This document shows positions 1-58,916 of a DNA stretch of 64,000 nt, one piece after another; position 1 is the stretch's first letter; every line of letters starts with the position of its first letter. Origin of the DNA: a virus. Position numbers and translations under genes: made by a program. Below the pieces are notes generated by a model. The model saw nothing but the letters and a program-made list of their open reading frames with translations. It was not told where the DNA came from and did no database searches. The stretch spans positions 33,781-97,780 of IMG/VR virus record IMGVR_UViG_3300034524_000084, one strand, 5' to 3'.

Positions 1-111
1 TCAAATTGTCATAGAACTTTTGTGTTATCTAATCCACAATTGGAGGGTTATAATTATTGCCCTGTTTGTGGTGCACGGTTTGTAGAATATGCCTACTTGG
101 AGGATGAGTAA
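1..111 (+). CDS. 3' end of small zinc-ribbon protein (partial)
   Basis: Frame 1 reads SNCHRTF...NYCPVCGARFVEYAYLEDE*; its TAA overlaps the next ATG. Confidence 0.6.
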   Translation, partial: SNCHRTFVLSNPQLEGYNYCPVCGARFVEYAYLEDE

Positions 112-2925: not shown

Positions 2926-3682
2926 AGAAAAAATAGAACAAATGTGTTGGAGTTATTCTAGGTTAAATGCATATCATACTTGTCCTTATATGTTTTATCT
3001 TCAATACATAAAAGAATATCAAGGAATCCCATCGGCATTTGGCTTATTTGGAAGTTTTGTGCATTCAATTTTAGAAAAATATTTTAAAGGTGAATTACTT
3101 GTTTTTGAATTAAGTGAATATTACAAAGAAAACTTTGATAAAGAAGTATATGTAGACTTTCCTCCTAATGCTTATGTAGATTTACGCCAGCGATATTTTG
3201 AAACTGGGTTGGATTTCTTTAATAATTTTAATGGATATGAGAACTTAAAAATTCTTGAGGTAGAACCTGAAGTCAACTTTAAAATAGCTAAATATTGTAT
3301 GCGTGGGTTTATTGATTTATTAGCACGAGACCAAGATAATAACTTGATAATTATCGATCATAAAACGAGGTCAGAATTTAAATCAAGGAAGGAATTAGAT
3401 GAATATTTAAGACAATTGTATTTGTATAGCATACCAATTGTTGAAAAATATAAAGAATACCCTAAAGAACTAATTCTTAACATGATAAAAGAAAAAAGAG
3501 ATATAAAAGTAGAATATAATACTAAAAAATTAGAAGAGGCTAAAATGTGGGTAATTCATACAATTGATACGATAAAAAATGATAATGAATTTAAAGCCAA
3601 ACCATCTCAGTTTTTCTGTGATTACATATGTAGTGTTAGAGAGTATTGCCCTAATAGCAATAAGTATTTGGGGATAGCTTAG
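2897..3682 (+). CDS. PD-(D/E)XK Cas4/RecB-like exonuclease
   Basis: SYSRL..Y.TCP, GSFVHSILE, GFIDL, IIDHKT, QLYLY; one N-terminal plus three C-terminal Cys (CDYIC...C). Confidence 0.85.
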   Translation: MRGELELEIKEKIEQMCWSYSRLNAYHTCPYMFYLQYIKEYQGIPSAFGLFGSFVHSILEKYFKGELLVFELSEYYKENFDKEVYVDFPPNAYVDLRQRYFETGLDFFNNFNGYENLKILEVEPEVNFKIAKYCMRGFIDLLARDQDNNLIIIDHKTRSEFKSRKELDEYLRQLYLYSIPIVEKYKEYPKELILNMIKEKRDIKVEYNTKKLEEAKMWVIHTIDTIKNDNEFKAKPSQFFCDYICSVREYCPNSNKYLGIA

Positions 3683-3694
3683 GGGGTATTTGAA

Positions 3695-6600
3695 ATGTTC
3701 GTGAGTTTGCATAATCACTCTATGTATTCTTTATTAGATGCTATTTCAAAACCAGACGAAATAATAGAAAAAGTTAAACAATTAGGGCAAAATGCATTTG
3801 CTATTACAGATCATGGAGTGGTTTATGGTGCAGTAGAATTTTATAAGTTAGCTAAAGAAAATGGACTCAAGTTTATTTATGGTGCTGAAATGTATATTTG
3901 TGATGATATTAATATAAGAGATAAAAATAATAAATATTATCATCTTGTTGTGTTAGCAAAAAATGAAACGGGAAGGATAAACTTAAATAAGCTAATAAGC
4001 GCAAGCAATTTAAAGGGGAAGTACTACAAACCACGTATTGATTTTAATATTCTCAAACAACATAAAGAAGGATTAATAGTTTTAAGTGCTTGTATGGCGG
4101 GGGAAATACAAAGAGCAATACAAGATAGTGATATAGTTTTAGCTAAAAAGATAGCATTAAAATATAAAAATGAATTCGGGAACGATTATTACTTAGAAAT
4201 TCAAAGTCATCGAGACCCCGAACAACAAAGACTCAATAGAATTGTAGTTGATATAGCTAAAGAATTAGGTATACCTTATGTAGTTACTACTGATAGTCAT
4301 TATGTTAATAAAGAAGACCAAGAATACCATAGTATATTTGTGTCAATAGGACGAGAAAGAGAACCAGGAGAAACATACAATGATTGTTATTGGCAGTCAG
4401 AGGAAGAAATATATAAAATTAATTTAGGAACACTCACAGAAGAAGAAATAGAAGTAGCAATAGAAAATACAGTTAAAATAGCTGAACAGTGTAATGTAGA
4501 TATGCCTTTATCACCTCCAATTATACCGCATGTGCAAATACCAAAAGAATTCAACTCTGAAATGGAATATTTAAAATATTTGTGTAAAAAAGGATGGGAA
4601 AAACGTGGTATAAGCAAACTACCAAATGTGAAAGAGTATAAAGAAAGGTTGCTTTACGAATTAGATGCTGTCGAAAAAATGGATTTTGCAGGATATTTCT
4701 TACTTGTGAGAAGTTATACAAATCAACTCAAGAGAAAAGGAATAGCAAGAGGCAGCAGTGGTGGTTCACTAATAGCATATTTGTTGGGTATCGTTGATAT
4801 TGACCCTATAAAATATGGTTTATATTTTGAAAGATTTATTGATACTTCTATATTACAAAAGATAGAAGAAGGTACTCTTAAACCAGAAGAATTAAAAGTA
4901 CCTGATATAGATGTTGATATGAGCCCAGCAGAAAGAGAAGAAGTTTTACGATTTATTATAAATACATACGGGCAAGAAAATGTGGTAAATATAGGAACAT
5001 TCCAATATTTGAGGGCTAAAAACGCCATTAAAGATATTGGTAGAGTTTTAGGAATACCTTTTGAAATTACGAATAAAATTACTAAAAACCTTGATAAAGA
5101 GACTATAGAAGAAGCTCTTGAGATGGGGTTATTAGACGAATACAAAGAGCAATATGGTGAACTATTTAAATATGCGCAAAAATTAGCGGGGCTACCAAAA
5201 GCTTTATCTGTACATGCAAGTGGGAAAATTATTACTACCAAACCAGTAAACCATTATTTCCCTGTAACAACAAATGATGATGGTGAGGTAATAATACAAT
5301 GTGATATGCATTCAGCAGAGGCATTAGGGTTAGTTAAAATTGATTTATTAGGGTTGCGTACTTTAGATGTAATATATGATGTTTTAGAGATGATAGGTAA
5401 AGATTATTCCTATATTGACCCACACAAGATTAATTTAGAAGATGATAATGTATTTAAGTTATTTAGAGATGGTAGAACTAATGGAGTGTTTCAGTTTGAA
5501 TCCAACGGAATGAAAGATGTATTAAAGAGAATGCAGGTATCAAGCTTAGATGATTTAGGTGTTGCTAATGCACTTTTTAGACCAGGAGCAAAGAAATATA
5601 TTGACAACTATATCAACAGAAAATTTGGAGTAGAAAAATTTGAGTACTTACACCCTGACTTAGAACCAATTTTAAAAAATACGTATGGTATTATAGTATT
5701 CCAAGAACAATTAATTGAAATAGGCAGATTAGCAGGATTGAGAAACCCAGACCTTTTAAGGAAGGCAACTGCTAAAAAAATACCAGAACTAATGGAGGTA
5801 ATTGAACCCGAACTTAAAGAAGGGCTCAAGAAAAGAGGATGGACTCAAGAACAAGTTGACAAATTGTGGGATGATATAATTGACTTTGCACACTATTCAT
5901 TTAATAAAGCTCATTCTTTTGCTTATGCTTTAACTGCTTACATTACAGCTTTCTTAAAGGTATATCACCCTAAAGAATTTATGTGTGCTCTATTGAATTC
6001 CTATGAAGGCAAAATAGATAAAATTGCTGAATCTTTAGAAGAATTAAGAAGGATGGAAATTCAAGTAGAAAAGTTTGATTATAAAAACTGTTATTCTTTA
6101 TGTGAAATTAAAAATGGTAAATTTTATTATGGAGTTGGGTTAATTAAACATTGTAATAGAGATATAGCTACTGAATTAAGAAAACTTAATAAACATTATG
6201 ATAGTTTTATAGATTTGTTAGTTGATATAGTTAATGAAACATCAATTAATTCAAAACAAATGGAAACATTAATAGTATTAAATTTCTTTAGTGAGTTTGG
6301 TAACAATAAAAAGTTACTAACGTTATGGAAAGAGTTTAAAGAAGGCAAAAACAAGTATAGTAAAAACTATGCTGAAAAAACCAAGGTTAAACGTGTGGAA
6401 GCATTAAAGAAAATAGAAAAAGAAATACTAAATGAGAAAATTTCCCTACATGAACAAATAATGTATGAGTACGAGTTTTTAGGTTATCCTATTTCAACTT
6501 ATGATGTGCCCAAACAATACTCTATAGTGCTTGAATTAGACAAAAAATATACTCCTAAAGTATTATTATACAATTTAAACACAGGTAAAACTGCTACAGT

Positions 6601-6769
6601 AAAAGTATCTCAAAAGTTATTCAATCGCAATAAATTTAAGGTAGGTGATGTATTATATATTACAAAATTTATTAAAAAACCTCAGGTCAAATATGAAGAT
6701 GGGCAATACATAGAAGTAAGGGGGGAATTTGATTGGTGGATTGAAAAATATGAGATAAAATCATTTTAA
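3695..6769 (+). CDS. dnaE: DNA polymerase III alpha subunit
   Basis: PHP motifs HNHSMYSLLD/TDHG, RGSSGGSL, PDIDVD, KIDLLGL, YSFNKAH. Confidence 0.97.
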   Translation: MFVSLHNHSMYSLLDAISKPDEIIEKVKQLGQNAFAITDHGVVYGAVEFYKLAKENGLKFIYGAEMYICDDINIRDKNNKYYHLVVLAKNETGRINLNKLISASNLKGKYYKPRIDFNILKQHKEGLIVLSACMAGEIQRAIQDSDIVLAKKIALKYKNEFGNDYYLEIQSHRDPEQQRLNRIVVDIAKELGIPYVVTTDSHYVNKEDQEYHSIFVSIGREREPGETYNDCYWQSEEEIYKINLGTLTEEEIEVAIENTVKIAEQCNVDMPLSPPIIPHVQIPKEFNSEMEYLKYLCKKGWEKRGISKLPNVKEYKERLLYELDAVEKMDFAGYFLLVRSYTNQLKRKGIARGSSGGSLIAYLLGIVDIDPIKYGLYFERFIDTSILQKIEEGTLKPEELKVPDIDVDMSPAEREEVLRFIINTYGQENVVNIGTFQYLRAKNAIKDIGRVLGIPFEITNKITKNLDKETIEEALEMGLLDEYKEQYGELFKYAQKLAGLPKALSVHASGKIITTKPVNHYFPVTTNDDGEVIIQCDMHSAEALGLVKIDLLGLRTLDVIYDVLEMIGKDYSYIDPHKINLEDDNVFKLFRDGRTNGVFQFESNGMKDVLKRMQVSSLDDLGVANALFRPGAKKYIDNYINRKFGVEKFEYLHPDLEPILKNTYGIIVFQEQLIEIGRLAGLRNPDLLRKATAKKIPELMEVIEPELKEGLKKRGWTQEQVDKLWDDIIDFAHYSFNKAHSFAYALTAYITAFLKVYHPKEFMCALLNSYEGKIDKIAESLEELRRMEIQVEKFDYKNCYSLCEIKNGKFYYGVGLIKHCNRDIATELRKLNKHYDSFIDLLVDIVNETSINSKQMETLIVLNFFSEFGNNKKLLTLWKEFKEGKNKYSKNYAEKTKVKRVEALKKIEKEILNEKISLHEQIMYEYEFLGYPISTYDVPKQYSIVLELDKKYTPKVLLYNLNTGKTATVKVSQKLFNRNKFKVGDVLYITKFIKKPQVKYEDGQYIEVRGEFDWWIEKYEIKSF

Positions 6770-6781
6770 GGGGGTAAAAGT

Positions 6782-6958
6782 GTGAGTAAGAAGTTGTGGA
6801 AATTATTATGGGGTATTTTAGTTGTATTAACTTTATATAATATGGTTGGTGTTGTTTTAGATATTGTATCAATCAGTAAGTTTGCTTATGAATTGGCATT
6901 AGCTTTATTGTTTATTTTTGAGGTGTTAATGTTTAATGCTGAAATTAAAATAAAATAA
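6782..6958 (+). CDS. small membrane protein (58 aa)
   Basis: GTG after GGGGG RBS; two hydrophobic segments. Confidence 0.55.
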   Translation: MSKKLWKLLWGILVVLTLYNMVGVVLDIVSISKFAYELALALLFIFEVLMFNAEIKIK

Positions 6959-6977
6959 ATTTGGGAGGATGATTTGT

Positions 6978-7145
6978 ATGAAAAAATTCCAGACTATTGA
7001 AGAACTAAATGAATACATCAAAAAAGAGTATGCTTGTGAGAATATTGAAGATCTACTGAAAGACTATGAGAGAGTATTGGATATTTTAAGTAAAATAGCA
7101 TATTTGGCTAACCAGTTGATAAAACAAATTATATTGTTAAATTAA
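6978..7145 (+). CDS. small hypothetical protein (possibly altered at its 3' end)
   Basis: GGAGG RBS; MKKFQTIEELNEY...; overlaps start of Mom-like remnant in another frame. Confidence 0.45.
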   Translation: MKKFQTIEELNEYIKKEYACENIEDLLKDYERVLDILSKIAYLANQLIKQIILLN

Positions 7146-7774
7146 TAGATAAAAAACTTGCAAAACAAATAATAATAGAAAATCATTATTCTCACAAGTG
7201 GACATCATGTAAATATGCACTTGGCTTATATGATAATAATATTTTGTTGGGAGTTGCAATTTATGGATTCCCAGTAGGACGACAAGTAGTTAAATCAATA
7301 TCGCCAATCTTAGAAAACAAAAATGTTTTAGAGTTAACAAGATTTTGGGTAAGTGATTTAGCGGAATACAATACTGAAAGTTACTTTTTGAGTTAAACTT
7401 TTAAATGGTTAAGAAATAATGATAAAGATGTTTGGGTGTTAATTGCATATTCTGATCCTATGTACGGTCATGTTGGTTATATTTATCAAGCTACTAATTG
7501 GTTGTATCAAGGGAATAGTACAATGTTGGTAAAGGGTTATTTGCATTATGTTAATGGAGAGTGGTTACATCCAAGAACTTGTGTGGCAAGATATGGGACT
7601 ATTAAATCCCATGAATTATTAAAAATAGATCCTAATTATAAAAGACGAGAAATGCCAAAAAAACATAGATATATTTATATTCTGAATAAAAAGTATAAGA
7701 AATTAATTTTAAATACTTTAAAACATCCAATATTGCCCTATCCTAAAAATAATAATGATAATGGAGGTATATAA
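7112..7774 (+). pseudogene. Mom-like (GNAT) adenine-modification gene, disrupted
   Basis: One frame reads ...IIENHYSHK...LGVAIYG...LELTRFW...NTESYFLS*TFKWL...LIAYSDP..GHVGYIYQATNW; in-frame TAA at 7394-7396; no clear start (TAA at 7109-7111). Confidence 0.8.
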
Positions 7775-11491: not shown

Positions 11492-11519
11492 TTGACAAAG
11501 AAAAAATGTGTGGTATAAT
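11492..11519 (+). promoter_or_regulatory. sigma-A promoter for cas12f
   Basis: TTGACA-16 nt-TATAAT with extended TG and A-rich UP element. Confidence 0.8.
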
Positions 11520-11609
11520 ATAAAATGTAAGCGTGAGGTGAATACAATGGATACGAGTTAAAAAATTTATTTTAAACGTACATAATAATAATAATAAGGG
11601 GTATGGTAA

Positions 11610-12983
11610 ATGGCAAAAAGAAAAAAAGAAAAAAGAACTATTATTAAAACACTAAAACTTGAATTGGTAGATGTTCTAAATTATCAACCACCTATTTCAA
11701 CAGATGAAAAAGAATATACAAAAAAAGAAAAAGAAAGAATGCTTAAAAAAGAACTTAGAGATTTACAAAAAAGAATAGCGCAAACTAGCAATTATATTAT
11801 GCGTGAATATTTTTTATGGGAATTGCGAAAAAATGCAGCTTCTAAAAATGGCATTGTGCTTAATGAAAAAGAAGAATTGGGTACCACACTTCAAAACAAA
11901 GGGTATAGAATCGCAGCTGAAACTTTGAAAGGATTGAATACAAGTAATATATCTGCTTTAACATCGTGGTTATGGGAAAATTGGAAGAAAGCCCGAAAAA
12001 GAGTATTGAATGGTAGTATAAGCTTGCCATCTTATGGTAATAAACAACCAATACATATTAATGGTAAAAATTATAAAATAATAGCATATAAAAATAATAA
12101 TGAGTATATAATAGAAATAACATTTTTAAGTCCTTCTGAAAAAAGAAATCGCACATTAAAATTTGTTACTGCAAAACAAGACAAATATCATCAAGATATT
12201 ATGAACAAAATATTAAATGGCGAATACAGACAAGGCTCAGCACAACTTATTTTAGAAGATAATCCTAATAAAAATTTAAGTGCACAAAAAATATTTTTTC
12301 ATTTTAATTATGAATTTATACCAAAACAAAAAGAAGAAATATCTGACAGAATTTTAGGAATTGATTTAGGGCTGAAAAATGTGATAGCGATGCAAGTTTA
12401 TGATCCACAACATCAACAATTTATAAGTCTTGATAATAATGAGTGCGTGATAGATGGTTTAGAACTAGTTATTTACAGAAATAAAATAGAAGCTTTAAGA
12501 AATAAGATAAGTAAAGCAACAAAATGGAAGGGGAAAGGTAATGTAGGTCATGGTTACAAAAAAAGAAATAAAAATGTATTAAATATACGCAAGAAAATTT
12601 CTAACTTTAGAAAAACTTATAACTATAAATTAGCTAAATATATAATTGATTTTGCATTAAAGTATCAATGTAAATATATTAAAATGGAAAAATTAACAAG
12701 ACATGGGTTTAGTGATACATTACTTCAAAATTGGACATTTAATGATTTGCAAAACAAGATAAAAAATAAAGCTAAAGAAAATGGAATTGAGGTTTTATTT
12801 GTTGAACCGCAGTATACTTCTCAACAATGCAGCAAATGTGGATATATAGATAAGGAAAACAGGGAAACAAGGGATAATTTTAAATGTAAGAAGTGCGGTT
12901 TTGAAATAGATGCTGATATAAATGCAGCACGAAATATAGCACTTTCGGAAAAAATTATTAAAGAAGATGATGATGATGAATAA
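11610..12983 (+). CDS. cas12f: Cas12f (type V-F, AsCas12f1-like) RNA-guided nuclease
   Basis: RuvC D/E/D intact (GIDLG, KMEKL, DADINAA), CxxC..CxxC zinc finger, AsCas12f1-like blocks (LNGSISLPSY, KILNGEY, GHGYKKR, LQNWTFNDLQ); adjacent CRISPR array. Confidence 0.88.
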   Translation: MAKRKKEKRTIIKTLKLELVDVLNYQPPISTDEKEYTKKEKERMLKKELRDLQKRIAQTSNYIMREYFLWELRKNAASKNGIVLNEKEELGTTLQNKGYRIAAETLKGLNTSNISALTSWLWENWKKARKRVLNGSISLPSYGNKQPIHINGKNYKIIAYKNNNEYIIEITFLSPSEKRNRTLKFVTAKQDKYHQDIMNKILNGEYRQGSAQLILEDNPNKNLSAQKIFFHFNYEFIPKQKEEISDRILGIDLGLKNVIAMQVYDPQHQQFISLDNNECVIDGLELVIYRNKIEALRNKISKATKWKGKGNVGHGYKKRNKNVLNIRKKISNFRKTYNYKLAKYIIDFALKYQCKYIKMEKLTRHGFSDTLLQNWTFNDLQNKIKNKAKENGIEVLFVEPQYTSQQCSKCGYIDKENRETRDNFKCKKCGFEIDADINAARNIALSEKIIKEDDDDE

Positions 12984-13000
12984 ATAGTACCTTGAAAATA

Positions 13001-13076
13001 AAATACGAGGTGTTTCCACACCTCAAGCCGAGTTCGCCATTCTCGGCAATCCCTCATAGTAATAAAACAAAATGGC
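13001..13076 (+). ncRNA. putative tracrRNA
   Basis: Anti-repeat TCCCTCATA (13050-13058) and TAAAAC (13063-13068); hairpins 13007-13024 and 13027-13047; TTCCA (13014-13018) complements the repeat 3' TGGAA; ends approximate. Confidence 0.75.
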
Positions 13077-13176
13077 TGTCGTCGATCCCTAAAGGGTTTT
13101 GCATTATTGTACATCGACGACAAAAAAGAGGATACATAACCTCGGAAATACAAGAAATATCGGTGTTTCAAAACGG
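13077..13176 (+). promoter_or_regulatory. CRISPR leader
   Basis: TGTCGTCGAT/ATCGACGACA inverted repeat (13077-13086/13113-13122) and AT-rich stretch directly before repeat 1. Confidence 0.65.
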
Positions 13177-13407
13177 GTTTTAATATAACATATGAGGGAA
13201 TGGAATATAAAGGATATACTAATATATCTAATTCATTTATTTGTTTTAATATAACATATGAGGGAATGGAATCTGCTTTTCTGACTCTACCTATCATGTT
13301 TTCAATCCCTCGTTTTAATATAACATATGAGGGAATGGAATGATGGTAGCAGGGTAAAATATAGAAACCTTGAAAGAGTTTTAATATAACATATGAGGGA
13401 ATGGAAT
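13177..13407 (+). CRISPR. CRISPR array, 4 identical 30-bp repeats, 3 spacers (36, 39, 36 bp)
   Basis: GTTTTAATATAACATATGAGGGAATGGAAT at 13177, 13243, 13312, 13378. Confidence 0.97.
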
Positions 13408-14730: not shown

Positions 14731-17700
14731 GTGCAAATCAAAAAAAGAAATGGTAAATTAGTAGAATTTGATGAGTTAAAAATAATTAGGGCAATTGAAA
14801 AAGCAATGGCAGAAACAAAAGATGGAGTGGATAGATACGTGAGTATGTCTATCGCTAAAAAAATTAAAGAAGAATTAGAAAAACAAGATGAAATTAAAAG
14901 CGTAGAAGATATACAAGATATGGTAGAAGTAGAATTAATGAAAGTAAGACCAGATGTGGCTAAGAAATACATACTCTACAGAGAAAAAAGAGCACAAATT
15001 AGGCAAAATGGTTGGGAGATGACTGATTTACAAAGGGATATATTCAAAAATAAATACGAATACAACAATGAAGGGTTTTTCAATTTTGCAAATAGGGTAG
15101 CAGGTGGCAACGATTATATAGCAAAGTTAATTGTAAACAAAAAATTCTTACCTGCTGGTAGAGTTTTAGCAGGTAGAGGATTGCAAAATAAAGGAATAAA
15201 GGTAACTTATAGTAATTGCTTTATCGCAGGAACAAAGATTATTACTAAACGTGGTTTAATTAATATTGAAGACGTAAAAGTAGGAGATTATGTTTTAACT
15301 TCTGACAATACATGGCAACCAGTTAATTATGTGATGAATAGAGAATATAATGAAGATTTATACAAGATAGAATTTGAGTATGGATTAGAACCCGTTATTT
15401 GTACTGCTAACCATGAATTCTTAGCTACAGATGGATGGGTAAGGGCTGATAGATTAGTAGGTTATCAAATGGATAGAAAATATTATTCTAATGCACACTT
15501 TGTTAAATTGCCCAAACCATCTTTTAAAATACCAGAATTTAAAATAAAATTATCTAATTATATTACCTTAAAAGAAAATCAAAAGATTGAAAAAATGGAT
15601 GATGGTTATATAAGACTAGTCACCGTTAGTAATGGTGGTAATGGTGCAAAAAATGTACCACATTATAGTAACAAAATTAAAGACGAAATAGTTATCAATA
15701 GAGATGTTAGATATTTGTTAGGAAGATGGATAGGAGATGGAAGTACCACAAGGCGAAAAGGGCAAAAAAATCATAGTATTTTTCAAATTGTATTTAATTC
15801 GCAAAAAGAACAAGAGGCTTTGTTAAAGTGCGCTAAAATTATAGAAGATAATTTTGGGATCAAACCATCAATACGAATTAATGAAAAACAGCATACCGCA
15901 ATACTAAGAGTTGAAAATCCATTATTAGCTGAATTCGTGGCAAAGTATATCGGTTTTAATGCCCAAACAAAACGTATTCCTAAAGATTTAATAGGGGATA
16001 TGGATGTAATTATAGGAATTATTGATTCAGATGGCACTCTGACAAAAATGGGGAATATTTCTTTAGTATTCAATAATAAAGAATTATTAGAAGATATTAG
16101 ATTATCTTTGGCTTTAAATGGTATATATACAAAAGAACCCCAAAAAATTAAACAATCCATGTCTAACACTTATAGAACTTACTCGGCTTACAAGATACTA
16201 ATCCCGACACCTTTTGTGAAACACTATCTTATAGATAAAATTAATAAAAAATACGAAGATGACAGAGTGGAACATATAAAAAATGAGACACTAAAAAGAG
16301 GTACGTTTTATAAAATTGTTGATGGTAATATCTATACTATTGTAAAAAATATCACAATATTAAAAAATAATAAAATCACTGTGTATAATCTCTCAGTGGA
16401 AAATAATCATACGTATACAGCGAATGGGGTGGTAGTCCATAATTGTTATGTCATTCCCGCTCCTGAGGATAACCTTGAATCAATATTTGATACTGCAAAA
16501 TATTTAGCGAGAACATATAGCTATGGTGGTGGCTGTGGAATTGATATATCAAAGTTAAGACCTAAAGGTGCAAAAGTAAATAATGCAGCTAAAGAAAGCA
16601 CTGGAGCAGTTTCATTTATGGAGTTATTTTCTACTACAACTGGATTGATAAGTCAAAAAGGCAGACGTAGGCAATAAATATTGCCTCCGAAAATGCATTG
16701 CATAGAGTAGGAGGATGTTAATGATACAAAAAGAGATTTTAGAGGAATATCTCAAACAAGGAATAAGTTTAAGAGGAATTGGGCGAATTACAGGGTATAA
16801 TCATAGGACTTTAGGATATTGGGCAAAAAAATACCAACTTACTCATCTAATAAAGCCTAACCATATAAAATATAAGGATGAGCATTATTTCCAAAAAATA
16901 AACACTAAAGAAAAGGCATATATTTTAGGTTTTATATTGGGCGATGGATATATAAGCGATGAAGCCATACAAATAAGTATAAAACTAAGTGACAGAGAAA
17001 TACTTGACCTTATAGCCGATGAACTTGGCGCAAGGCTAATAATTGACGAGCGAACCAATAAAAAACAAAAAAAATACCCTTCAGCGGAAATTAATATAGG
17101 AAACAAATATATAGTGAAAGATATACTTAGATTAAGTGGAGGCAAACTCAAACAAGATAGGCATATACCAATTATTTCACCAAAATTGGAAAATTATTTG
17201 GTACAAGGATTTTTTGATGCTGAAGGAACTATAACTTGGGGACACCGAAAAGATAGGGATAGAATTTGGCACAAAGTAGCATTTATTTCACAACTCAAAA
17301 TGTTGGAAGGTATCCAAAATATACTTATTAAAAATGGTATTCCTACTAAAATTAGACCAAAATCAGACGGTAATTGTTATGTGATGGAAATTGCTAATAA
17401 AGAGATGGTTTTAAAACTGATGGAGTATATTTACCAAGACAAAGAATTTATTATCTTAAAACGAAAATACCAAAATTATCAAGCCCTGCGTCTTGAATTG
17501 GGTGAAGTCGGTGGAGCCTAAACATACCTTATGGTATGCATGGTAACACCGAGCCAAGCCTACCGAATGGCTCTTAGGGTAGGTAGGAAGGTGTAGAGAC
17601 TATGGGGTGAGGAAGCCTACCAATAATCCTCAATAAGCGCCCAAGCCCTTATACATTTTGTATAGGGGTAAGATATAGTCCAACCCACGTGGAAACACGT

Positions 17701-19101
17701 GGATTATTGGGGGCATTAATGATAAGTATAGATTGCCACCACCCAGACATTATAGATTTTATTAACATAAAAAATGATTTGACTAAAGTTACTAAAGCAA
17801 ACATCTCAATAAGAGCAACAGATGATTTTATGCAAGCAATAAAAAATAATGAAGATTTTGAGTTATTTTTTGAAATTCCTGAAACTGGCGAAAAAATATC
17901 TAAAAAGGTCAGAGCAAGAGATTTATTATATGAAATAGCTAAATCAAACTGGAATATGGGAGAGCCAGGATTTTTGTACTGGGATAGAATTGAGAAATGG
18001 AATTTATTATATGGCAATAAAGAATTTAAATTTGGGGGAGTAAATCCGTGTGGTGAAGAGCCTCTCCCAGACTTCGGCTCATGTAATCTTGGTAGTATGA
18101 ATTTATCTGAATATGTAGTTAAACCATTCACAAAAGAAGCTTATTTCGATTTTGATAGCTTTGCAAGAGATGTAAAAGAAGCAGTTGTCTATCTCAATGA
18201 AATACTTGATGAGGGAATGTATTTACACCCACTGAAAGAACAACAAGAAGTAGTAAGAGATTGGAGACAAATTGGGTTGGGCATCATGGGGCTCGCAGAT
18301 ATGTTTATAAAATTAGGTATACGCTATGGTTCACCAGAATCATTAGAATTGGCAGATAAAATAGGTTATGTAATGATTAATGCAGCTATGCAACAATCGG
18401 CACTACTTGCAAAGGAATATGGCACATATCCTAAATATGACAAAGAAGCAACTTTATCATCACCTTTTTTCCAATACAATGCTGATGAAGTCACAAAAAC
18501 ATTGGTTGAGAAATATGGATTAAGAAACAGCCAGCTCCTTACAATTGCTCCTACAGGCAGTATTTCCACTATGCTTGGTGTATCAGGAGGTATTGAACCC
18601 ATTTTTGAGATATCTTATACGAGAAAAACTGAAACACTGAATGGTACTGAAAGCTATTATAAAGTATATACACCAATTGTTGCAGAATATATGAAATTGT
18701 ACAATTTAAAATCAGGAGAAGAATTACCTGACTATTTTGTTACAGCAATGACAATTCCATATCAAGAAAGAATAAAAATGCAGGCAGTATGGCAGAAACA
18801 TATTGATGCAAGTATATCATCAACTGTAAATCTTCCCGAAGAAACTGCAATAGAAGACATCATGAATATTTACATGATGGCTTGGGAAGAAGGATTAAAA
18901 GGAATTACAGTATTTAGAAATAATTGTTTTAGAACAGGAATATTACTTACAGAACCACCTAAAACACAACAAACACAACAAGAAACAAAAAATACAAATT
19001 TAGAAGAAGAAGATAAATGTCCAATCTGTGGTGGCAAATTAAAACATATAGGTGGATGTACTGAATGTGAAGATTGTGGTTGGAGTGCTTGCTCAGTTTG
19101 A
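14731..19101 (+). CDS. nrdJ: class II (B12-dependent) ribonucleotide reductase; exons 14731-16668 and 17710-19101; contains an intein
   Basis: ATP cone, FLPAGR, SN|CY, spliced SQKGRR-GALM, NPCGEEPL, TIAPTGS, LKGITVFR; about 700 aa after intron and intein removal. Confidence 0.92.
15217..16443 (+). mobile_element. intein (409 aa) with LAGLIDADG endonuclease in NrdJ
   Basis: Starts CFIAGTKI, has CTANHEF block B, LGRWIGDG/GIIDSDG, ends VVHN followed by Cys+1. Confidence 0.93.
16669..17709 (+). mobile_element. group I intron in nrdJ
   Basis: Core elements GGTAACACCGAGCCAAG, GAAGGTGTAGAGACT, AAGATATAGTCC; terminal G at 17709; removal restores GRRGALM. Confidence 0.88.
16715..17521 (+). CDS. intron-encoded LAGLIDADG homing endonuclease
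   Basis: KAYILGFILGDG and LVQGFFDAEG motifs; N-terminal HTH-like segment. Confidence 0.88.
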   Translation: MLMIQKEILEEYLKQGISLRGIGRITGYNHRTLGYWAKKYQLTHLIKPNHIKYKDEHYFQKINTKEKAYILGFILGDGYISDEAIQISIKLSDREILDLIADELGARLIIDERTNKKQKKYPSAEINIGNKYIVKDILRLSGGKLKQDRHIPIISPKLENYLVQGFFDAEGTITWGHRKDRDRIWHKVAFISQLKMLEGIQNILIKNGIPTKIRPKSDGNCYVMEIANKEMVLKLMEYIYQDKEFIILKRKYQNYQALRLELGEVGGA

Positions 19102-22399: not shown

Positions 22400-23527
22400 A
22401 TGGCAGGTTCAATCAGAAAAAGGGGGAATAAATATCAGGTTGTAATTGAATTAGGAACAGATGTGAATGGCAAGAGATTAAGAAGATATTTTACTGCCAA
22501 TTCTGAGGCTGAAGCTAAGAAAATTTTAATAGAGCAAGAATATCTATTACAACAGAATAGTTTCTTAATTCCGTCTGACATGACTTTTGGGGAATTCCTT
22601 AATTATTGGTTTGATAATTATGTAAAAATTAAAAATGAAAAAACCACACAAACTGAATACCGACGAGTATTAGATAAATATATTATCCCTAAATTAGGAA
22701 ACATAAAATTACAGAAATTAATGCCACATCATATACAGAGTTATTATAAATATCTAATGGAAGAAGTTGGATTGTCTCCTAATACTGTCTACAAACATCA
22801 TGCTAATATACGTAAGGCATTAGATTACGCTCTAAAACAAAAATTTGTAAGTGCCAATGTGGCTGATGCTGTAGAATTACCTAAGAAAATTGAATTTGAA
22901 GGCAACTCATATACAATTGAACAATTGCAAAAATTATTAGAAAAATCAAAAGATACTTATTTGGAAGCACCTATAGCTTTAGCTGTTTACTTGGGATTAC
23001 GAAGAGAAGAAATTGCTGGATTAAGATGGGAACATGTCAATTTTGAAGAAAGAACTATATCAATAAAAGAAGTAAAAGTTAGAGCTGATAGGGAAGTTAT
23101 AGTTAAAAAACCAAAAAATAAAAGTAGCGAAAGGATACTTCATATTCCTGATGGGTTATATAATATTTTAAAGAAATGGAAAGATAAACAAGAATATCAT
23201 AAAAATCTTTTTGGTAAAAAATACGTAGAATCAGATTATGTGTGTACTTATTTTGATGGTAGACCTATAAAACCAGATAAACTAAGCAGGAGATTTAAGG
23301 AATTTCTATTAAGAAATAATTTACCTCCTATTAGACTACATGATTTACGACATACATTTGCTACAGTATTATACCAAAATGGTGTGCCTGTTAAAAATAT
23401 CTCAGAAGCATTGGGGCATTCTGATATTACTACCACACTTAAAATTTATGCCCATGTTATCGACAAAACCAACAAAGAAGCTGTGAATAAAATGGATGAT
23501 CTACTAAAAATCCATAAGGAGACATGA
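22400..23527 (+). CDS. int: tyrosine integrase
   Basis: Arm-binding N-terminus, GLRREE, HDLRHT, LGHS, IY. Confidence 0.96.
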   Translation: MAGSIRKRGNKYQVVIELGTDVNGKRLRRYFTANSEAEAKKILIEQEYLLQQNSFLIPSDMTFGEFLNYWFDNYVKIKNEKTTQTEYRRVLDKYIIPKLGNIKLQKLMPHHIQSYYKYLMEEVGLSPNTVYKHHANIRKALDYALKQKFVSANVADAVELPKKIEFEGNSYTIEQLQKLLEKSKDTYLEAPIALAVYLGLRREEIAGLRWEHVNFEERTISIKEVKVRADREVIVKKPKNKSSERILHIPDGLYNILKKWKDKQEYHKNLFGKKYVESDYVCTYFDGRPIKPDKLSRRFKEFLLRNNLPPIRLHDLRHTFATVLYQNGVPVKNISEALGHSDITTTLKIYAHVIDKTNKEAVNKMDDLLKIHKET

Positions 23528-23688: not shown

Positions 23689-25030
23689 CTGACATACTCT
23701 CTCCACTGAAGTGGAGAGGTTCTTTAAGCGAAGTTTGGTAGTCTATGCTACCCTTATTCGCTTGGGGCTGCCAAACCCTCTACTCCTATCCAGTACTGGA
23801 TTTGGAGCTACTCTCTTTAATATATTTATTGCACCATTTATATCTGCATTCATTACTGCACCGCATTTGCTACAGACGTATAATCCTCTGTATATGCGAT
23901 TATTTTTCTTCACTACACCGCATACACTGCAAGTCTGTGATGTGTACGCTTCATCTACCTTTTCTACTTCTATTCCATATTCTTTAGCTTTGTATTTTAT
24001 CATATCAAATAATCTACCAAACGGTATTTTGTGTAGTTTCTCGTTATTTTTATGTCCTATATCCATATTTGTTATTCCATCGCTCATTCCACCTATCACT
24101 ATCTTGCTTACTCCTTTTTCTTTCGCTAATTCTACTATATGTCTTGAAACTTTATGTATATAGTCTTTTACAAAATTATTCTCTTTGATTATTAAATTGT
24201 GAAACTTTTGCGATGTTTTGTATCCTTGTTTTGAAATTACAGATTGAATCTTCGCTTTTTCTTTGGCTAATAATCTTAATCTTGAGATAAGGTGACTGCC
24301 ATCGATGATAAATGTTTCTGGATTTTCTTCTATAACAATTGAAGCGAGATTCTTTACTCCAAAATCTATTCCCATTAATTTATCTCTTTTAGGCTTGATT
24401 TCTGGTATTTCTTTTTTGTAGATGATATGGACAAAGTAGGTGGTATATCCATAAGAAGTTTTTGGAACAATTTCAATTTCCTGTACAGTATTGAGCGATA
24501 GATTTTTCGGTAAATCTATCCATAGATATTTGGACTCAATACCGTACTTTTCTTTTAAATATTGCTTTGTTTGTGTGGACAATGATAGTCTGATTTTGCT
24601 ATTAATTATTTTTATGCCATTTTTCTTCCATCTTACAGGGATATGCCCGTTTTTGGGTTGATACTTCGGCTTTTTAGTATATCCATCAAAAAAATTCTTC
24701 CAAGCTATCTGTAGTTTTTGCAGTATTGCTTGTGCAGATTGTGAATGCAAGTTTTTATACCAGAAATTATCCTTTAAGCACTTTTCTAACTGATTTACTA
24801 ATACTTCTCTGTTTTGAACAGCATAGTTTGCAACGTTCCACAATTTTGATGCTGAGTATGTTAAATGTCCCAATATTATTCTGTGTTCGCTGTTGCAGTT
24901 AGAGAGTTGAAATACTATAACTCTTGTTACTATCACTTTTCTCACCTTCTTTCTGTTTTAGATCTGCTTTATTTTATCACATTTTTACCGCCTTTCATCT
25001 CTCCAATAAATTGGAGAGCGTTCTCGGCGG
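23689..25030 (-). mobile_element. non-autonomous IS200/IS605-family (tnpB-only) element
   Basis: Subterminal CTCTCCA/TGGAGAG hairpins at both ends (23699-23718, 24999-25018); right end ...GAGTATGTCAG; no TSD; no tnpA. Confidence 0.85.
23743..24945 (-). CDS. tnpB: TnpB RNA-guided endonuclease
   Basis: LWNVAN, MGIDFG, YIHKVSR, EAYTSQTCSVCG, NADING. Confidence 0.93.
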   Translation of the reverse strand: MRKVIVTRVIVFQLSNCNSEHRIILGHLTYSASKLWNVANYAVQNREVLVNQLEKCLKDNFWYKNLHSQSAQAILQKLQIAWKNFFDGYTKKPKYQPKNGHIPVRWKKNGIKIINSKIRLSLSTQTKQYLKEKYGIESKYLWIDLPKNLSLNTVQEIEIVPKTSYGYTTYFVHIIYKKEIPEIKPKRDKLMGIDFGVKNLASIVIEENPETFIIDGSHLISRLRLLAKEKAKIQSVISKQGYKTSQKFHNLIIKENNFVKDYIHKVSRHIVELAKEKGVSKIVIGGMSDGITNMDIGHKNNEKLHKIPFGRLFDMIKYKAKEYGIEVEKVDEAYTSQTCSVCGVVKKNNRIYRGLYVCSKCGAVMNADINGAINILKRVAPNPVLDRSRGFGSPKRIRVA

Positions 25031-25510: not shown

Positions 25511-26239
25511 TCAAGTAATAATATTTTTAATTTGATTTATTTGATTTGCTAATTTGTCTCTTTCTGCTCTTACTTGGTTATAATTGTTTATTAAATCATT
25601 ATAATCTTTTCTTAGTTGTTCGTAGTTAGCTTTAAGTTGATTATATTCAGTTAAAGATATTACCTGTGGTTGTTGAGGTTGTGGAGAGGGTTGAGATACT
25701 GTTTGTAAACCCAATGCCTTTTTCAGAGCATCCGCAATAGCTTTAGCTAATTCATCTAAAAAATTTTCATCTGCCAAAAATTTAGCATCACCAGGATTGT
25801 TTATAAATAAATTTTCTATAACAATAGCAGGCATTTTCGTTTTATTAAGCACATAAAAATTAGCTTGCTTAAATCCTCTATCAATTAACCCTTTGGAAAC
25901 ATAAAATTTCGCTAAACTATCATGGATTTTTTTACCTAAATCAATAGACTTTTGAGAAGCTTTTGTAGAAATATAACTTTCGAAGCCTGTTGCTAATACA
26001 TTTGCACTGTTTATATGAATACTAATAAAATAATCTGCATTTGCTTTGTTTGCTATATCGCACCTTTCTTGAAGAGACACTGTTTTATCTGTGTCTCTTG
26101 TGAGAATCACATCGCATGAGCCTTTTAATAAGTCTCTTATTTTTAAGGCAAGTTTAAGAGTTATATCTTTTTCCTTGAGCCCATTTCCTGTTGCGCCAGG
26201 GTCATAACCGCCATGTCCTGGATCTAATATTAATTTCAT
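25511..26239 (-). CDS. endolysin, N-acetylmuramoyl-L-alanine amidase (Amidase_3)
   Basis: LDPGHGG, EKD, ISIHINS, IENLFI. Confidence 0.95.
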   Translation of the reverse strand: MKLILDPGHGGYDPGATGNGLKEKDITLKLALKIRDLLKGSCDVILTRDTDKTVSLQERCDIANKANADYFISIHINSANVLATGFESYISTKASQKSIDLGKKIHDSLAKFYVSKGLIDRGFKQANFYVLNKTKMPAIVIENLFINNPGDAKFLADENFLDELAKAIADALKKALGLQTVSQPSPQPQQPQVISLTEYNQLKANYEQLRKDYNDLINNYNQVRAERDKLANQINQIKNIIT

Positions 26240-26244
26240 ACATA

Positions 26245-26460
26245 TTACCTCCCAATCATTAAATTAACTACAAGTATAACTAAAGAAGTAATAACGCCTC
26301 CCATTAAAGCTATGAGCCATGTGTATATGCCGTCCACTTTTTGTTCAAGGTTTTGTAAGCTACCGTTTTGTTTTGACTGCCATTCCTCCAATTTTTTTAA
26401 TCTTTCATCATGTTTACCTAATAGTACCTCCATGTCATTCACCTTCTCCTCTAAATTCAT
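26245..26460 (-). CDS. XhlA-like holin/hemolysin
   Basis: Coiled coil plus C-terminal TM; start MNLEEK after GGGG RBS. Confidence 0.7.
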   Translation of the reverse strand: MNLEEKVNDMEVLLGKHDERLKKLEEWQSKQNGSLQNLEQKVDGIYTWLIALMGGVITSLVILVVNLMIGR

Positions 26461-26500
26461 AGTACATACCCCTTTCTGCCAAAAAGAATACAATAAGAAA

Positions 26501-26523
26501 AGAGTAGGTGATAACCCTACTCT
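26501..26523 (-). terminator. late-operon terminator hairpin
   Basis: AGAGTAGG/CCTACTCT stem followed by T-run on - strand. Confidence 0.7.
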
Positions 26524-26538
26524 TTTTGACAATAATAT

Positions 26539-26772
26539 TTATTCGTTCTCTGCTTCTTCGTTAGGTACTGTCTTTTGTTCTACTTCTTCCTTCTCCTGTT
26601 TTGAATATTGCACCAACTCTTGTCGATATACTCTTTCGTATTCCTGGTCCAGTAATCGCTTCAGTTCATCTACAACGGGCTTGACAAGTGCTATATGCAA
26701 GGATGCCTCGTTAATTTTATTTATCAAGTCTTGCTTTAACTGCTCTACGGCAACCGTTAATGGCTTATTCAT
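26539..26772 (-). CDS. hypothetical protein (tail-associated)
   Basis: 77 aa ORF, position. Confidence 0.6.
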   Translation of the reverse strand: MNKPLTVAVEQLKQDLINKINEASLHIALVKPVVDELKRLLDQEYERVYRQELVQYSKQEKEEVEQKTVPNEEAENE

Positions 26773-27056
26773 TTTTTAGCCCCCTTTTGCTTAATTTTAA
26801 TAGAAGTAACCTTAAGGTTAGCTTTTTTAACCTTATTGGGTGTTACAACACTCTCTACCAAATTGTTGTAATTATTGAACTCTTCACCTAAATCTATGTT
26901 CAGCGCTGTTGCTAGTCTAACTACTGCTTGTCGCAAAAGCTTTAGTTCGTCCTCTAGTTCATATTTACGCCTAATTGACTCTTTTGTTTCGTTGTCTATT
27001 ACTTTTGTACGTTCTTCCGCTGAATATCCTTGTTCTATCACTCTAACTTTTCCCAC
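26769..27056 (-). CDS. hypothetical protein (possible tail fibre chaperone)
   Basis: IRRKYELEDE motif; position. Confidence 0.55.
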   Translation of the reverse strand: MGKVRVIEQGYSAEERTKVIDNETKESIRRKYELEDELKLLRQAVVRLATALNIDLGEEFNNYNNLVESVVTPNKVKKANLKVTSIKIKQKGAKK

Positions 27057-27433
27057 TGCACTTCACCGTCCTCTCCAAACGGAGTCGAATACTCTCCATC
27101 AAACCGTCTGGTGTATATTGGCAGTTCACGTAAATCGGCACAGTTAGGCGGTATATAAAAGTTACATAGTGTTAAAACAACATTTTCCACTTCGGGAGGG
27201 TGTGTATAATTCCGACCACGTACAACTACAACAGGTTCCTTTGGGTCGTCTTTTAGGTAAATTCGTACATTTTGTTCTACATCCTCTATAGGAAACTCTA
27301 TTTTGGTTTCTGGGAATATTGTTCCTTTCCAGACTCCTTTGCCAATCACTAAAGCCATAGGGTTATCGAGGGAATGAGAAATGTGGAATCCAATATCTCC
27401 ACAGTCCCTTTTAATGTAACGCACATAAATCAA
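27038..27433 (-). CDS. hypothetical protein
   Basis: Probable TTG start after GGAGG at end of fibre gene. Confidence 0.55.
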   Translation of the reverse strand: MIYVRYIKRDCGDIGFHISHSLDNPMALVIGKGVWKGTIFPETKIEFPIEDVEQNVRIYLKDDPKEPVVVVRGRNYTHPPEVENVVLTLCNFYIPPNCADLRELPIYTRRFDGEYSTPFGEDGEVQWEKLE

Positions 27434-27435
27434 AA

Positions 27436-30096
27436 TTATACACCTCCAACCGCAATTGCTCTTACATATCCCGTTGCTGTGCCTGCCATACACACCTCAC
27501 AGGACGATGCAGTTACATTGCGTACTTTAGTTCCTAAATTATTATCATCTCTGTGAATGACAATTGGCGTAGATGCAAAATCTGGATAGTCCCATGTTAC
27601 CCATGCTCCAGAAGCAGAGTATTTGGATGTCGAGGCTATGGCAGGGTTTGTATACGAGTCTGTTGATTTTACTGCCTTGCCAGACGACGTCCCAGCCCTT
27701 AATGTAATCTGCCCCGATACTGTACCACCCGATGTTAGCAAAAAACTAGAAGCGTGATATCCATCTAATAAATCAGCATCTAAACCGCTACCTGCACCAT
27801 CGTTGCCTGCATGCCAGACGGTGTTGTTGTTAATCTTTACTCCATTATTGCTTGGCGTTTTGATATGAACAATATCGCTTGCGTCATTAGTCACCTGAAT
27901 AATAAGTTCCTGATTTTCACCACCACTAGGGTTTTGTAACGTAATACTGGCAGTATCTCCAGAACCTCCAAAAGCATCATTTGGAAATGCAATACCTCCA
28001 CTAGGTCCAGCGGGTACTATAAGTCTTCCCGTCATCGTATCCCCTGCTTTGTTGACAAAACTACTTGCATGTAACCCATCTAACAAATCAGCATCTAAAC
28101 CAGACCCATGACCGTCATTATTTTCACTCCAAACTTTTCGCCATGGGCCAAACACATCGGTTCCTACATCTCTTGCTGAACGTATATATAAATATGCTTC
28201 GCCACCATCACTACCTGGCCACGCTTGTAAAATCTGTACACATGAGTTACCAGTTGTACCTTTATAAGAAAAAATTGTTCCGTAAGATACTGGATAACCA
28301 TTGTTATATACAATCCCAGCAACAAAACCTACAGGCCATGCTGATGGTGGTGCGGATGATGGTATATTAATTTTGGCGATTAAACTAGGAACAGTCAAAG
28401 TGCCCGCTATATATACATCTCCCCCTACATCCAAAACACCTTGCTCCCATATCTTTCCTATACCTACACCTTGTTTTCCCCACGACATTGTCACAACGCC
28501 TGTAGAAACCTCTTTTGTCGATGTAACCGAATAAAATTTATCTACTAGCCTTAGTCTTACGTCATAGCTAGAAGTAATATCATATCCACTATATACCTTT
28601 GTTCCGCTAAATGAAGAACCAACGCTAAATGATTCTTTTGTTGTCCAAGTACCAGAGGTTTTAGGTTTAGTTTCAATATATAAAGTTGCAGTGTTTTTGC
28701 TATTAAGGGTAGAAAAACTTCCTCCATAAGTTACTTTTATATAAGTTCCCATATTATTGTCGGTTCCATCAGAATTGCACCTTTTTACAGTAAAACTTGT
28801 AATTGTAGGAGAACTATATGCCAGTACAGTAACGTTTACAGTTTTGGTTTTAGTCCTTCCTCGGCTATCAGTGACTGTAGCACTAATAGTTCTTGTGCCA
28901 GAATTGGTTATAGTATTGGTAGTGGCACTTTGAGCATTATAATTTATACCATCGTATGTGATTTTGTATGAGGTAATTGTGCTTCCATACGCTCCTGTTG
29001 CTCCTACAATGGAAATATTTATTTTGGATAGATTTTGTGCATATACTCCACTACCTAATCCTAAAGCAGCTACAGCACTATTGGCTTCGGAATGAGAAAT
29101 ATTTGTAAAATCTGGTACTACACTATCAGGTACTATAGTTGTTAAACTTGCACTCTTGGTACCTACTAGAGCCGTACCATTGTAAGTGTCGATATAAATA
29201 GTGCCTGTGGTTGAAGTACTGTTAGGGATATAATTCATAAAATTATTTGGAACTGTCCACTGATAGCTCGTTGAGGTGGTTTGAGAAACAATTGTACCAG
29301 TATTGTTGTTCCAATTGTACCTGATGGTATGAGTGAGCTTTGAGTGTGCTCTGCTGATATTGATAGTCACTGAGCTACCATAGTTTACTGAACCAGCACT
29401 CAAGCTCACCGAACTGACAGGAATCGCCAAAGTAAGGGTGGTAGACTTCGTACCTACTAAAGTACTTCCTGAATACGTATCACAATAAATCGTGCATGTG
29501 GCACTGGCTGCATTGGATAACCCAGCAATTAAACTTGTGGGAACTGTCCATGTGTAACTAGTACCAACATCAGTTGCTATAGTACCGCTTTGTCCAGCTA
29601 CGCTGTACCGTAGTGTATGCGTGAAACTCGACGAATACCGACTTATATTTATCGTTACACTCTTACCAAATTCTACGTTGCTAGAACTCACGGATACGGA
29701 GCTTGTGCGTGGTATAGTGTCCAATGTGGTGCTCCACGATTGACTGGACGAACTAAACCTGTCGTGTCTTATATATGCTGATATATTTAAAGTTTTATTA
29801 CCATCTGCGTTATGTGTTATATCCAAAGTCCGACTAAATACTACAGTATAACTATTATATGTGAACTTATGGTCAGGAGTTATTGAAGATGTATATTGAG
29901 TTCCATCAATTGTCACGTAACACGTTCCACTACCGTACGTGGTATATCCAGTATTTGTTCTCCATACTTGTATTTCAACCGTTACATTAGACGTATTGTT
30001 AGTAACATTCTGAGAATTAAGTGTTAATTTTACACGATATTTTACATATTGATTGCTGGTATCCATAGTTTGAGAATACCGGGTCCATATGGCCAT
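27436..30096 (-). CDS. tail fibre / DUF859-like minor structural protein
   Basis: S/T-rich beta domains, LDTIPR, VTDSRGR, WEQGVLDV, duplicated GSGLDADLLDG fibre motif. Confidence 0.8.
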   Translation of the reverse strand: MAIWTRYSQTMDTSNQYVKYRVKLTLNSQNVTNNTSNVTVEIQVWRTNTGYTTYGSGTCYVTIDGTQYTSSITPDHKFTYNSYTVVFSRTLDITHNADGNKTLNISAYIRHDRFSSSSQSWSTTLDTIPRTSSVSVSSSNVEFGKSVTINISRYSSSFTHTLRYSVAGQSGTIATDVGTSYTWTVPTSLIAGLSNAASATCTIYCDTYSGSTLVGTKSTTLTLAIPVSSVSLSAGSVNYGSSVTINISRAHSKLTHTIRYNWNNNTGTIVSQTTSTSYQWTVPNNFMNYIPNSTSTTGTIYIDTYNGTALVGTKSASLTTIVPDSVVPDFTNISHSEANSAVAALGLGSGVYAQNLSKINISIVGATGAYGSTITSYKITYDGINYNAQSATTNTITNSGTRTISATVTDSRGRTKTKTVNVTVLAYSSPTITSFTVKRCNSDGTDNNMGTYIKVTYGGSFSTLNSKNTATLYIETKPKTSGTWTTKESFSVGSSFSGTKVYSGYDITSSYDVRLRLVDKFYSVTSTKEVSTGVVTMSWGKQGVGIGKIWEQGVLDVGGDVYIAGTLTVPSLIAKINIPSSAPPSAWPVGFVAGIVYNNGYPVSYGTIFSYKGTTGNSCVQILQAWPGSDGGEAYLYIRSARDVGTDVFGPWRKVWSENNDGHGSGLDADLLDGLHASSFVNKAGDTMTGRLIVPAGPSGGIAFPNDAFGGSGDTASITLQNPSGGENQELIIQVTNDASDIVHIKTPSNNGVKINNNTVWHAGNDGAGSGLDADLLDGYHASSFLLTSGGTVSGQITLRAGTSSGKAVKSTDSYTNPAIASTSKYSASGAWVTWDYPDFASTPIVIHRDDNNLGTKVRNVTASSCEVCMAGTATGYVRAIAVGGV

Positions 30097-30113
30097 AATT
30101 CATCCCTCCACTT

Positions 30114-58785: not shown

Positions 58786-58904
58786 CCTCTGTTCCCTCCT
58801 TAATTATCTTCTTTAGGAAATCGACAACCACCACTTTGTTTTTCTTTACAAGGGATTGCCGAGAGTGGTGGACTCGGCTTAGGGTGCAGAGATACCCCGT
58901 GTTT
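58786..58904 (-). ncRNA. orphan tracrRNA-repeat fusion (natural sgRNA-like scaffold)
   Basis: 43/54 identity to 13001-13054, similarity continues to 13094, then 16/25 ungapped match to the CRISPR repeat; compensatory changes in paired regions. Confidence 0.75.
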
Positions 58905-58916
58905 GGCTATAAAAAT

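Follow-up and report, generated by a model that had tools for sequence, protein, structure and literature searches.

Positions 11,492 to 13,407 of a 64,000-nucleotide (nt) stretch of viral DNA (hereafter the window; bases 33781-97780 of the 97,780-bp IMG/VR virus record IMGVR_UViG_3300034524_000084) very probably hold a functional, interference-only type V-F1 CRISPR-Cas12f cassette, carried by a tailed phage of about 98 kb with a low-G+C Bacillota host. The cassette comprises a cas12f gene behind a sigma-70-type promoter, a structured stretch that would encode the trans-activating CRISPR RNA (tracrRNA) and a short array of repeats and spacers (Table 1). The same cassette is present in two independent assemblies and every spacer has a protospacer elsewhere, which argues against a chance arrangement.

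Cassette anatomy and effector

A sequence-only reading of the window had described a phage-encoded system with a strong promoter, a 457-amino-acid (aa) Cas12f retaining the three RuvC catalytic residues, a tracr-like region and a four-repeat, three-spacer array, with no cas1 or cas2 in the window; each of these elements was recovered here. The promoter presumably drives cas12f and possibly reads through into the tracrRNA and the array, because a promoter scan found no separate promoter for either. The array begins 193 nt downstream of cas12f, its four repeats are identical and may resemble clostridial type I-B repeats, and the last repeat directly abuts the next phage gene's ribosome-binding site. 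Phage genes (DNA polymerase, ribonucleotide reductase, portal, tape measure, tail) flank the cassette on both sides, and the record, whose ends share a 126-bp terminal repeat, is a complete or nearly complete tailed-phage genome. The absence of cas1 and cas2 holds for the whole 97,780-bp genome, where Cas4 likewise had no match; the same searches were positive in control genomes.

The Cas12f protein matches Pfam PF07282 (Cas12f1-like TNB domain, E 6e-24), while its best NCBIfam model is the generic guided_TnpB (147 bits). A search of solved structures ranked AsCas12f (8j12/7wju/8dzj) and another Cas12f (9nzq) highest, with E values of about 1e-60 over nearly the full length, whereas ISDra2 TnpB reached only 1e-5. 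An alignment with 12 relatives shows no variation at the RuvC triad (D252, E360, D436) or at the four cysteines of the zinc finger (C407, C410, C426, C429; CCCC), and the triad lines up with RuvC motifs in AsCas12f. Close relatives are few (95%, 83%, 67%, 67%, 49% and 47% identity, the rest at most 41%); distant homologues are common in Bacillota genomes and IMG/VR contigs, and most of these have a CRISPR array a few hundred bases from the gene. A FastTree phylogeny of 146 homologues gives the protein a long branch, and its neighbours include some that have a detectable array and others that do not. We assign it to the AsCas12f-like type V-F1 (former V-U3) effectors, and the structure matches, together with the covarying anti-repeat pairings described below, support the AsCas12f1-type, tracr-dependent nuclease proposed earlier. 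Its use as a new miniature editor is plausible, yet it is one of very many Cas12f1 homologues.

Table 1. Coordinates of the cassette, its predicted RNA pairings and two related elements (window positions unless stated otherwise).
Feature	Position	Strand	Basis or remarks
Sigma-70-type promoter, TTGACA-16 nt-TATAAT, TG-n before TATAAT (extended -10)	11492..11519	+	12/12 consensus positions
cas12f, 457 aa, type V-F1 (V-U3-like) effector	11610..12983	+	Open reading frame, Pfam, NCBIfam, solved-structure matches, alignment
Putative tracrRNA	13000..13176	+	Fold, repeat duplex, covariation; ends predicted
CRISPR array	13177..13407	+	Four repeats, three spacers, protospacers
Repeats, 30 nt, identical, GTTTTAATATAACATATGAGGGAATGGAAT	13177-13206, 13243-13272, 13312-13341, 13378-13407	+	
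Spacers, 36/39/36 nt	13207-13242, 13273-13311, 13342-13377	+	
Predicted tracrRNA hairpin 1	13007-13012 with 13019-13024	+	1 compensatory pair in stem
Predicted pseudoknot 1	Hairpin 1 loop 13014-13018 with repeat 3' end	+	Compensatory in 3/5 pairs
Predicted tracrRNA hairpin 2	13027-13032 with 13042-13047	+	
Predicted pseudoknot 2	Hairpin 2 loop 13036-13041 with 13071-13076	+	Compensatory in 2/6 pairs
Predicted anti-repeat	13050-13058 with repeat bases 15-23	+	Compensatory in 2/9 pairs
Predicted long stem	13078-13086 with 13113-13121	+	
Candidate 3' anti-repeat	13167-13174 with repeat start	+	1 compensatory pair
Orphan second copy of tracrRNA 5' part, fused directly to repeat-like 3' segment (single-guide-like)	58786..58905	-	
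Noncoding block shared by phage and set 2 element	Genome 2950-3170 (L244, outside window); L007 5710-5960; L240 1027-1280		

Spacer targets and protospacer-adjacent motif

IMG/VR was scanned with the first 22 nt of five spacers, and the retrieved contigs were searched with all seven, three from this phage and four from the sister phages described below. Protospacers were found for 7/7 spacers in other viral contigs that lack the repeat, with 0-2 mismatches over the full length; for the phage's own three spacers the mismatches are 0, 2 and 0 and the 5' flanks ATTA, TTTA and TTTA. Across all seven the flanks read ATTA, TTTA, TTTA, TTTA, ATTA, CTCA and TTTA, with 5'-TTA directly upstream in 6/7; given a TTA frequency of 0.034 in the target contigs, the probability of at least six in seven is about 1e-8. 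These natural protospacers point to a T-rich protospacer-adjacent motif (PAM), 5'-TTA, and its position 5' of the match on the spacer plus strand implies that the CRISPR RNAs (crRNAs) would read repeat then spacer.

The protospacers lie inside coding regions of foreign elements, on either strand, and fall into two target sets. Set 1 (L005/L241, L006, L242, L243) is a small siphovirus with its own tail genes; two of its matches lie in the tape measure gene, one in a DnaD-like replication initiator gene and one in the 3' end of the gene for the major tail protein. Set 2 (L007, L008, L240) is a small capsid-encoding element of 11-16 kb, matched in its major capsid gene and in two genes that resemble those for a primase and a terminase small subunit. 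All of these genes are essential, and the same target contigs are matched at different places by spacers from different sister phages. Concomitantly, two public runs that contain the phage locus also contain exact protospacer contexts, so that phage and targets co-occur. The spacers had no match in the phage's own genome. The sequence-only reading had suggested that a spacer search would give protospacers and a PAM, as it did, and that the cassette is used against competing phages, other mobile genetic elements or host genes; the matches of 7/7 spacers to viral contigs with a T-rich PAM uphold the first part of that proposal, while no host gene was found to match any spacer. We also observed that one co-occurring target contig, from run X2, reads GACGGC where spacer 3 begins GATGGT (window 13342-13347), two PAM-proximal mismatches that possibly mark an escape variant.

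Sister phages and spacer turnover

The cassette occupies the position between the same flanking genes in two other assemblies, an IMG/VR contig (L009/L080) and a metagenome contig (L160), and the spacers are wholly different among the three phages. In L160 the repeat is the same as here, the tracr region is nearly identical and there are only two spacers, with a point mutation in the last repeat. L009 shares with this phage, at 100% identity, the promoter and the initial ~1250 nt of cas12f, while the RuvC-II/zinc-finger third of the gene (window 12656-12900), the anti-repeat and the repeat (GTTTCAAGGTAATATATAGGGGAGTGGAAC) diverge together, followed by different spacers and then by decayed repeat remnants. 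L009 thus looks like a recombination mosaic, in which the C-terminal part of the protein and the guide scaffold would co-vary.

As three near-identical phages carry three spacer sets, guide content changes quickly. Acquisition would be PAM-aware because the natural protospacers share a consistent PAM, and because the phage has no adaptation genes, the spacers are gained without phage-encoded Cas1, Cas2 or Cas4, most likely either through a host Cas1-Cas2(-Cas4) module acting in trans or through exchange of array segments by recombination, the latter route fitting the mosaic pattern of L009. Borrowing of host adaptation machinery is known from plasmid type IV systems (PMC11656645). Cas1 was found in the genomes of four bacterial relatives, an observation with no bearing on the adaptation donor of this phage. 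Separately, a distantly related 108-kb phage contig (L084), which has the DNA polymerase and adjoining genes in common with this phage, encodes a 430-aa Cas12f-like protein (5832-7284; 33% identity) with a two-repeat mini-array of 36-nt repeats ahead of the gene.

Pairing of the tracrRNA with the repeat

The intergenic stretch between gene and array (12984-13176) folds much better than its shuffled versions (z = -4.3; 0/200 shuffles fold as well), and the tracr region had no family match in Rfam. The repeat can pair with 13036-13069 in a predicted duplex of -20 kcal/mol. Covariation was counted on a hand-drawn structure (Table 1) over four aligned copies, namely this phage, L160, L009 and the orphan copy described below: 96% of cells are paired and 9 pairs changed on both sides, a number that 0/500 shuffles reach and that compares with 0-2 in slid controls. 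Repeat and anti-repeat change jointly in L009. The predicted pairings, including the two pseudoknots, have good support that falls short of proof, because few copies were compared and these same sequences served to draw the structure. A continuous anti-repeat including 13060-13069 was considered and rejected, being unsupported in L009; the alternative 3' anti-repeat covaries at a single pair only.

The orphan copy of the tracrRNA 5' part lies 45 kb from the main cassette and was detected by a search within the genome, with 76% identity to 13001-13094 over 95 nt (E 1e-11). It lacks the part that matches 13095-13181 and runs straight into the repeat-like segment, and where it departs from the main tracrRNA the changes are compensatory in both pseudoknots. 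It sits between a metallophosphatase-like open reading frame and the ribosome-binding site and start of a DUF4428/holin-like open reading frame (58015-58770), and the gene upstream of it is not Cas12f-like. The would-be guide of this RNA had no match in the phage genome or the target contigs beyond words resembling ribosome-binding sites.

The small target element

With 3/7 spacers matching the set 2 element, the cassette may serve chiefly against satellites, as the CRISPR system of ICP1 does against PLE, the element being a satellite that exploits the tails or the replication of the phage. We consider this a possibility on the doubtful side, and one that refines the explanation given above rather than excluding it. 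Within the 11 kb examined, the element encodes an SU10_MCP capsid protein, a portal, a terminase and a primase-like protein, while neither a tape measure nor tail genes were found there; contigs carrying its primase reach at most ~16 kb across 14 cluster members. Phage and element also have in common a noncoding block of ~250 nt, 83% identical across 154 nt (E 3e-37), that contains two iterons as well as palindromes (TAGGGTATACCCTA). In the phage this block lies within a gene-poor stretch near genome position 3 kb; it could serve as an origin or as a site for packaging or control. In addition, the element encodes a homologue (31% identity, E 1e-21) of a protein from the phage's head-tail module; its capsid protein is unrelated to the presumed capsid protein of the phage, and the best named relative of a target-element protein belongs to a Thermoanaerobacterium metagenome-assembled genome (69%). 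Nevertheless, the other 4/7 spacers match an ordinary siphovirus with its own tail genes, the element sequence is incomplete, with neither an integrase nor attachment sites recovered in it, and the shared pieces would also be explained if the element were a small phage in its own right, or by simple recombination among phages.

A joint reading, which we hold to be somewhat less likely still, places the cassette in an arms race with a capsid-forming satellite, alongside the fused RNA on the leader of the holin-like gene. If so, the satellite would have taken from the phage both a protein of the neck module and a noncoding block with a control or origin function, and Cas12f would regulate a phage gene through the orphan RNA, or that RNA would be a fixed guide or a decoy.

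Mechanism and alternative explanations

In the explanation that we favor, a functional interference cassette, the strong promoter would transcribe cas12f, the region between gene and array would yield a tracrRNA of ~175 nt, and the array, transcribed in the same direction, would give repeat-then-spacer crRNAs. The tracrRNA and the repeat would pair through the central anti-repeat and through a pseudoknot with the last repeat bases, and Cas12f, presumably as a dimer as in AsCas12f, would cut double-stranded DNA where a 5'-TTA PAM stands beside the match. Its natural targets would be the replication initiator, primase, terminase small subunit, major capsid, major tail and tape measure genes, all essential, of other phage-like elements in the same host, such that rivals or parasites would be removed during co-infection or on entry of the phage into a lysogen.

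Several points weigh against this explanation. One protospacer is flanked by TCA instead of TTA, and the RNA model draws on three independent lineages and the orphan copy, the same sequences from which it was built; its exact 3' anti-repeat is ambiguous, with two candidates of which only one covaries. The placement of the protein in the tree, on a long branch among mixed neighbours, adds nothing decisive to its classification, so that in the comparison with Cas12f1 and TnpB envisaged by the sequence-only reading it is the structure search (1e-60 versus 1e-5) that speaks for Cas12f. Finally, the public runs with the locus include no RNA run, and expression and cleavage are thus inferred.

This last point, the short arrays (2-3 spacers) and the missing adaptation genes would all fit a frozen relic, that is, a cassette that is inherited and out of use and whose spacer matches record past events. 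We judge this unlikely, since no catalytic residue has been lost, the promoter matches the consensus perfectly, near-identical phages carry three spacer sets with perfect matches to elements in the same samples, and the RNA pairings have been maintained by compensatory changes. Less probable again is that the complex binds rather than cuts and silences host or phage genes, as do nuclease-dead Cas12f and long-form tracrRNAs. The orphan fusion on the 5' leader of the holin-like gene would suit such a role, but the RuvC triad is intact, the full-length spacers find near-perfect matches within foreign coding regions on either strand, and no host or self target was found.

That the gene is an IS200/IS605-type TnpB with its guide RNA and repeats arising by chance, or a host CRISPR locus on a chimeric contig, is already effectively refuted: the generic NCBIfam model and the JGI annotation of relatives as 'IS605 OrfB transposase' point that way, but no Y1 transposase (tnpA) matched anywhere in the 97,780-bp genome (the same search being positive in control genomes), no insertion sequence (IS)-end hairpins flank the gene, the repeats are identical and all spacers have protospacers, and the insertion site is the same in three assemblies on a contig closed by terminal repeats. 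The sequence-only reading had named flanking IS ends as the sign of an IS-borne TnpB; inverted-repeat IS ends were not seen around 11.4-13.5 kb, where the flanks are collinear in the three phages, and in place of a single fixed guide set by a transposon end there are array spacers, which vary from one sister phage to another.

The window also holds a second TnpB-family gene (23743-24945, minus strand; 400 aa, guided_TnpB 215 bits) that has no array, is bracketed by matching CTCTCC...GGAGAG hairpins and adjoins a tyrosine recombinase gene (22400-23527). Its RuvC-II region reads IVIGGMSDG, in which no residue stands out as the catalytic glutamate. The gene has the look of a TnpB-only element of the IS605 type and offers an internal contrast to cas12f.

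Phage genome

The phage genome has a G+C content of ~30%. Besides a portal and tail proteins, it encodes a tape measure protein of 2014 aa, RtcB, a DNA polymerase and a ribonucleotide reductase split by an intein. No GenBank phage gave a near or a distant DNA match, and the portal is only ~28% identical to those of the closest cultured phages. Public runs with the locus carry the habitat labels subsurface, soil, wastewater, landfill and paper pulp.

G+C rises to 39-42% over the tail protein and tail fibre genes (window 26000-34000), against ~30% elsewhere, which suggests a separately acquired host-range module. Selfish elements are abundant in the genome (window 14731-19101, 42955-43908, 55655-56557): the large subunit of the ribonucleotide reductase is split by an intein with a LAGLIDADG domain, a tyrosine recombinase lies within the tail module, and a free-standing LAGLIDADG protein is also encoded.

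Comparison with known systems

The cassette resembles the loci of AsCas12f1 and SpCas12f1, in which the tracrRNA is encoded between gene and array and crRNAs are of the repeat-then-spacer form (PMC8548392, Bigelyte 2021), and V-U3 loci without adaptation genes have been described in Clostridia and Bacilli (PMC7229846, Karvelis 2020). The likeness extends to the size class (457 aa here versus 422), the RuvC triad and zinc finger, the long tracrRNA between gene and array, the repeat of ~30 nt that starts with GTTT and ends in GGAAT/GGAAC, the repeat-then-spacer crRNA, the T-rich 5' PAM and a locus without cas1, cas2 or cas4. In contrast, sequence identity is only ~35-40%, with ~35 extra N-terminal residues here, and the cassette sits in a phage genome (virulent-looking or temperate) instead of a bacterial chromosome; its TTA PAM is read from natural protospacers and its activity is a prediction from sequence.

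Phage-borne V-F/Cas14 systems without Cas1, Cas2 and Cas4 that target other phages have been reported in huge phages (PMC7162821, Al-Shayeb 2020) and in landfill viromes (PMC12607003), CRISPR systems being described as rare in phages below 200 kb and common above (PMC11656645). The cassette shares with the huge-phage systems its phage location, the lack of Cas1, Cas2 and Cas4, the conserved catalytic residues and spacers against other phages; it differs in the genome size of 98 kb, in an effector of the AsCas12f-like branch and in that every spacer has an identified target and PAM. The type I-F system of ICP1 is likewise a phage CRISPR system whose spacers may target a small parasitic element of the same host (Seed 2013, reviewed in PMC11656645). 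However, the ICP1 system is a full class 1 one that includes an adaptation module, whereas here a single miniature class 2 effector stands without one, and that the target is a satellite is no more than a lead. With IS200/IS605 TnpB the effector shares a homologous RuvC/zinc-finger core and a guide scaffold just 3' of the gene, but transposon ends and TnpA are absent, the guides are those of a variable array and the tracrRNA is separate.

Interference-only phage systems of type V-F are thus already published, and the cassette, which is real, adds a member with rivals as targets and leaves the current picture of CRISPR biology unchanged. It is an unusually complete natural case, in which effector, scaffold, PAM and real targets can all be read from the sequence. 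As such, it offers a compact nuclease ready for testing, for which a TTA PAM is predicted and covariation backs a guide design that includes a naturally shortened single-guide-like form, and a tractable system for spacer gain by interference-only arrays. It is also a test case for whether phages below 100 kb turn Cas12f on satellites as well as on rival phages, the possible anti-satellite role and the orphan single-guide-like RNA being the most novel leads. Altogether, what sets the cassette apart from its published counterparts is the combination of fully identified targets and PAM, visible spacer turnover and an orphan single-guide-like RNA.

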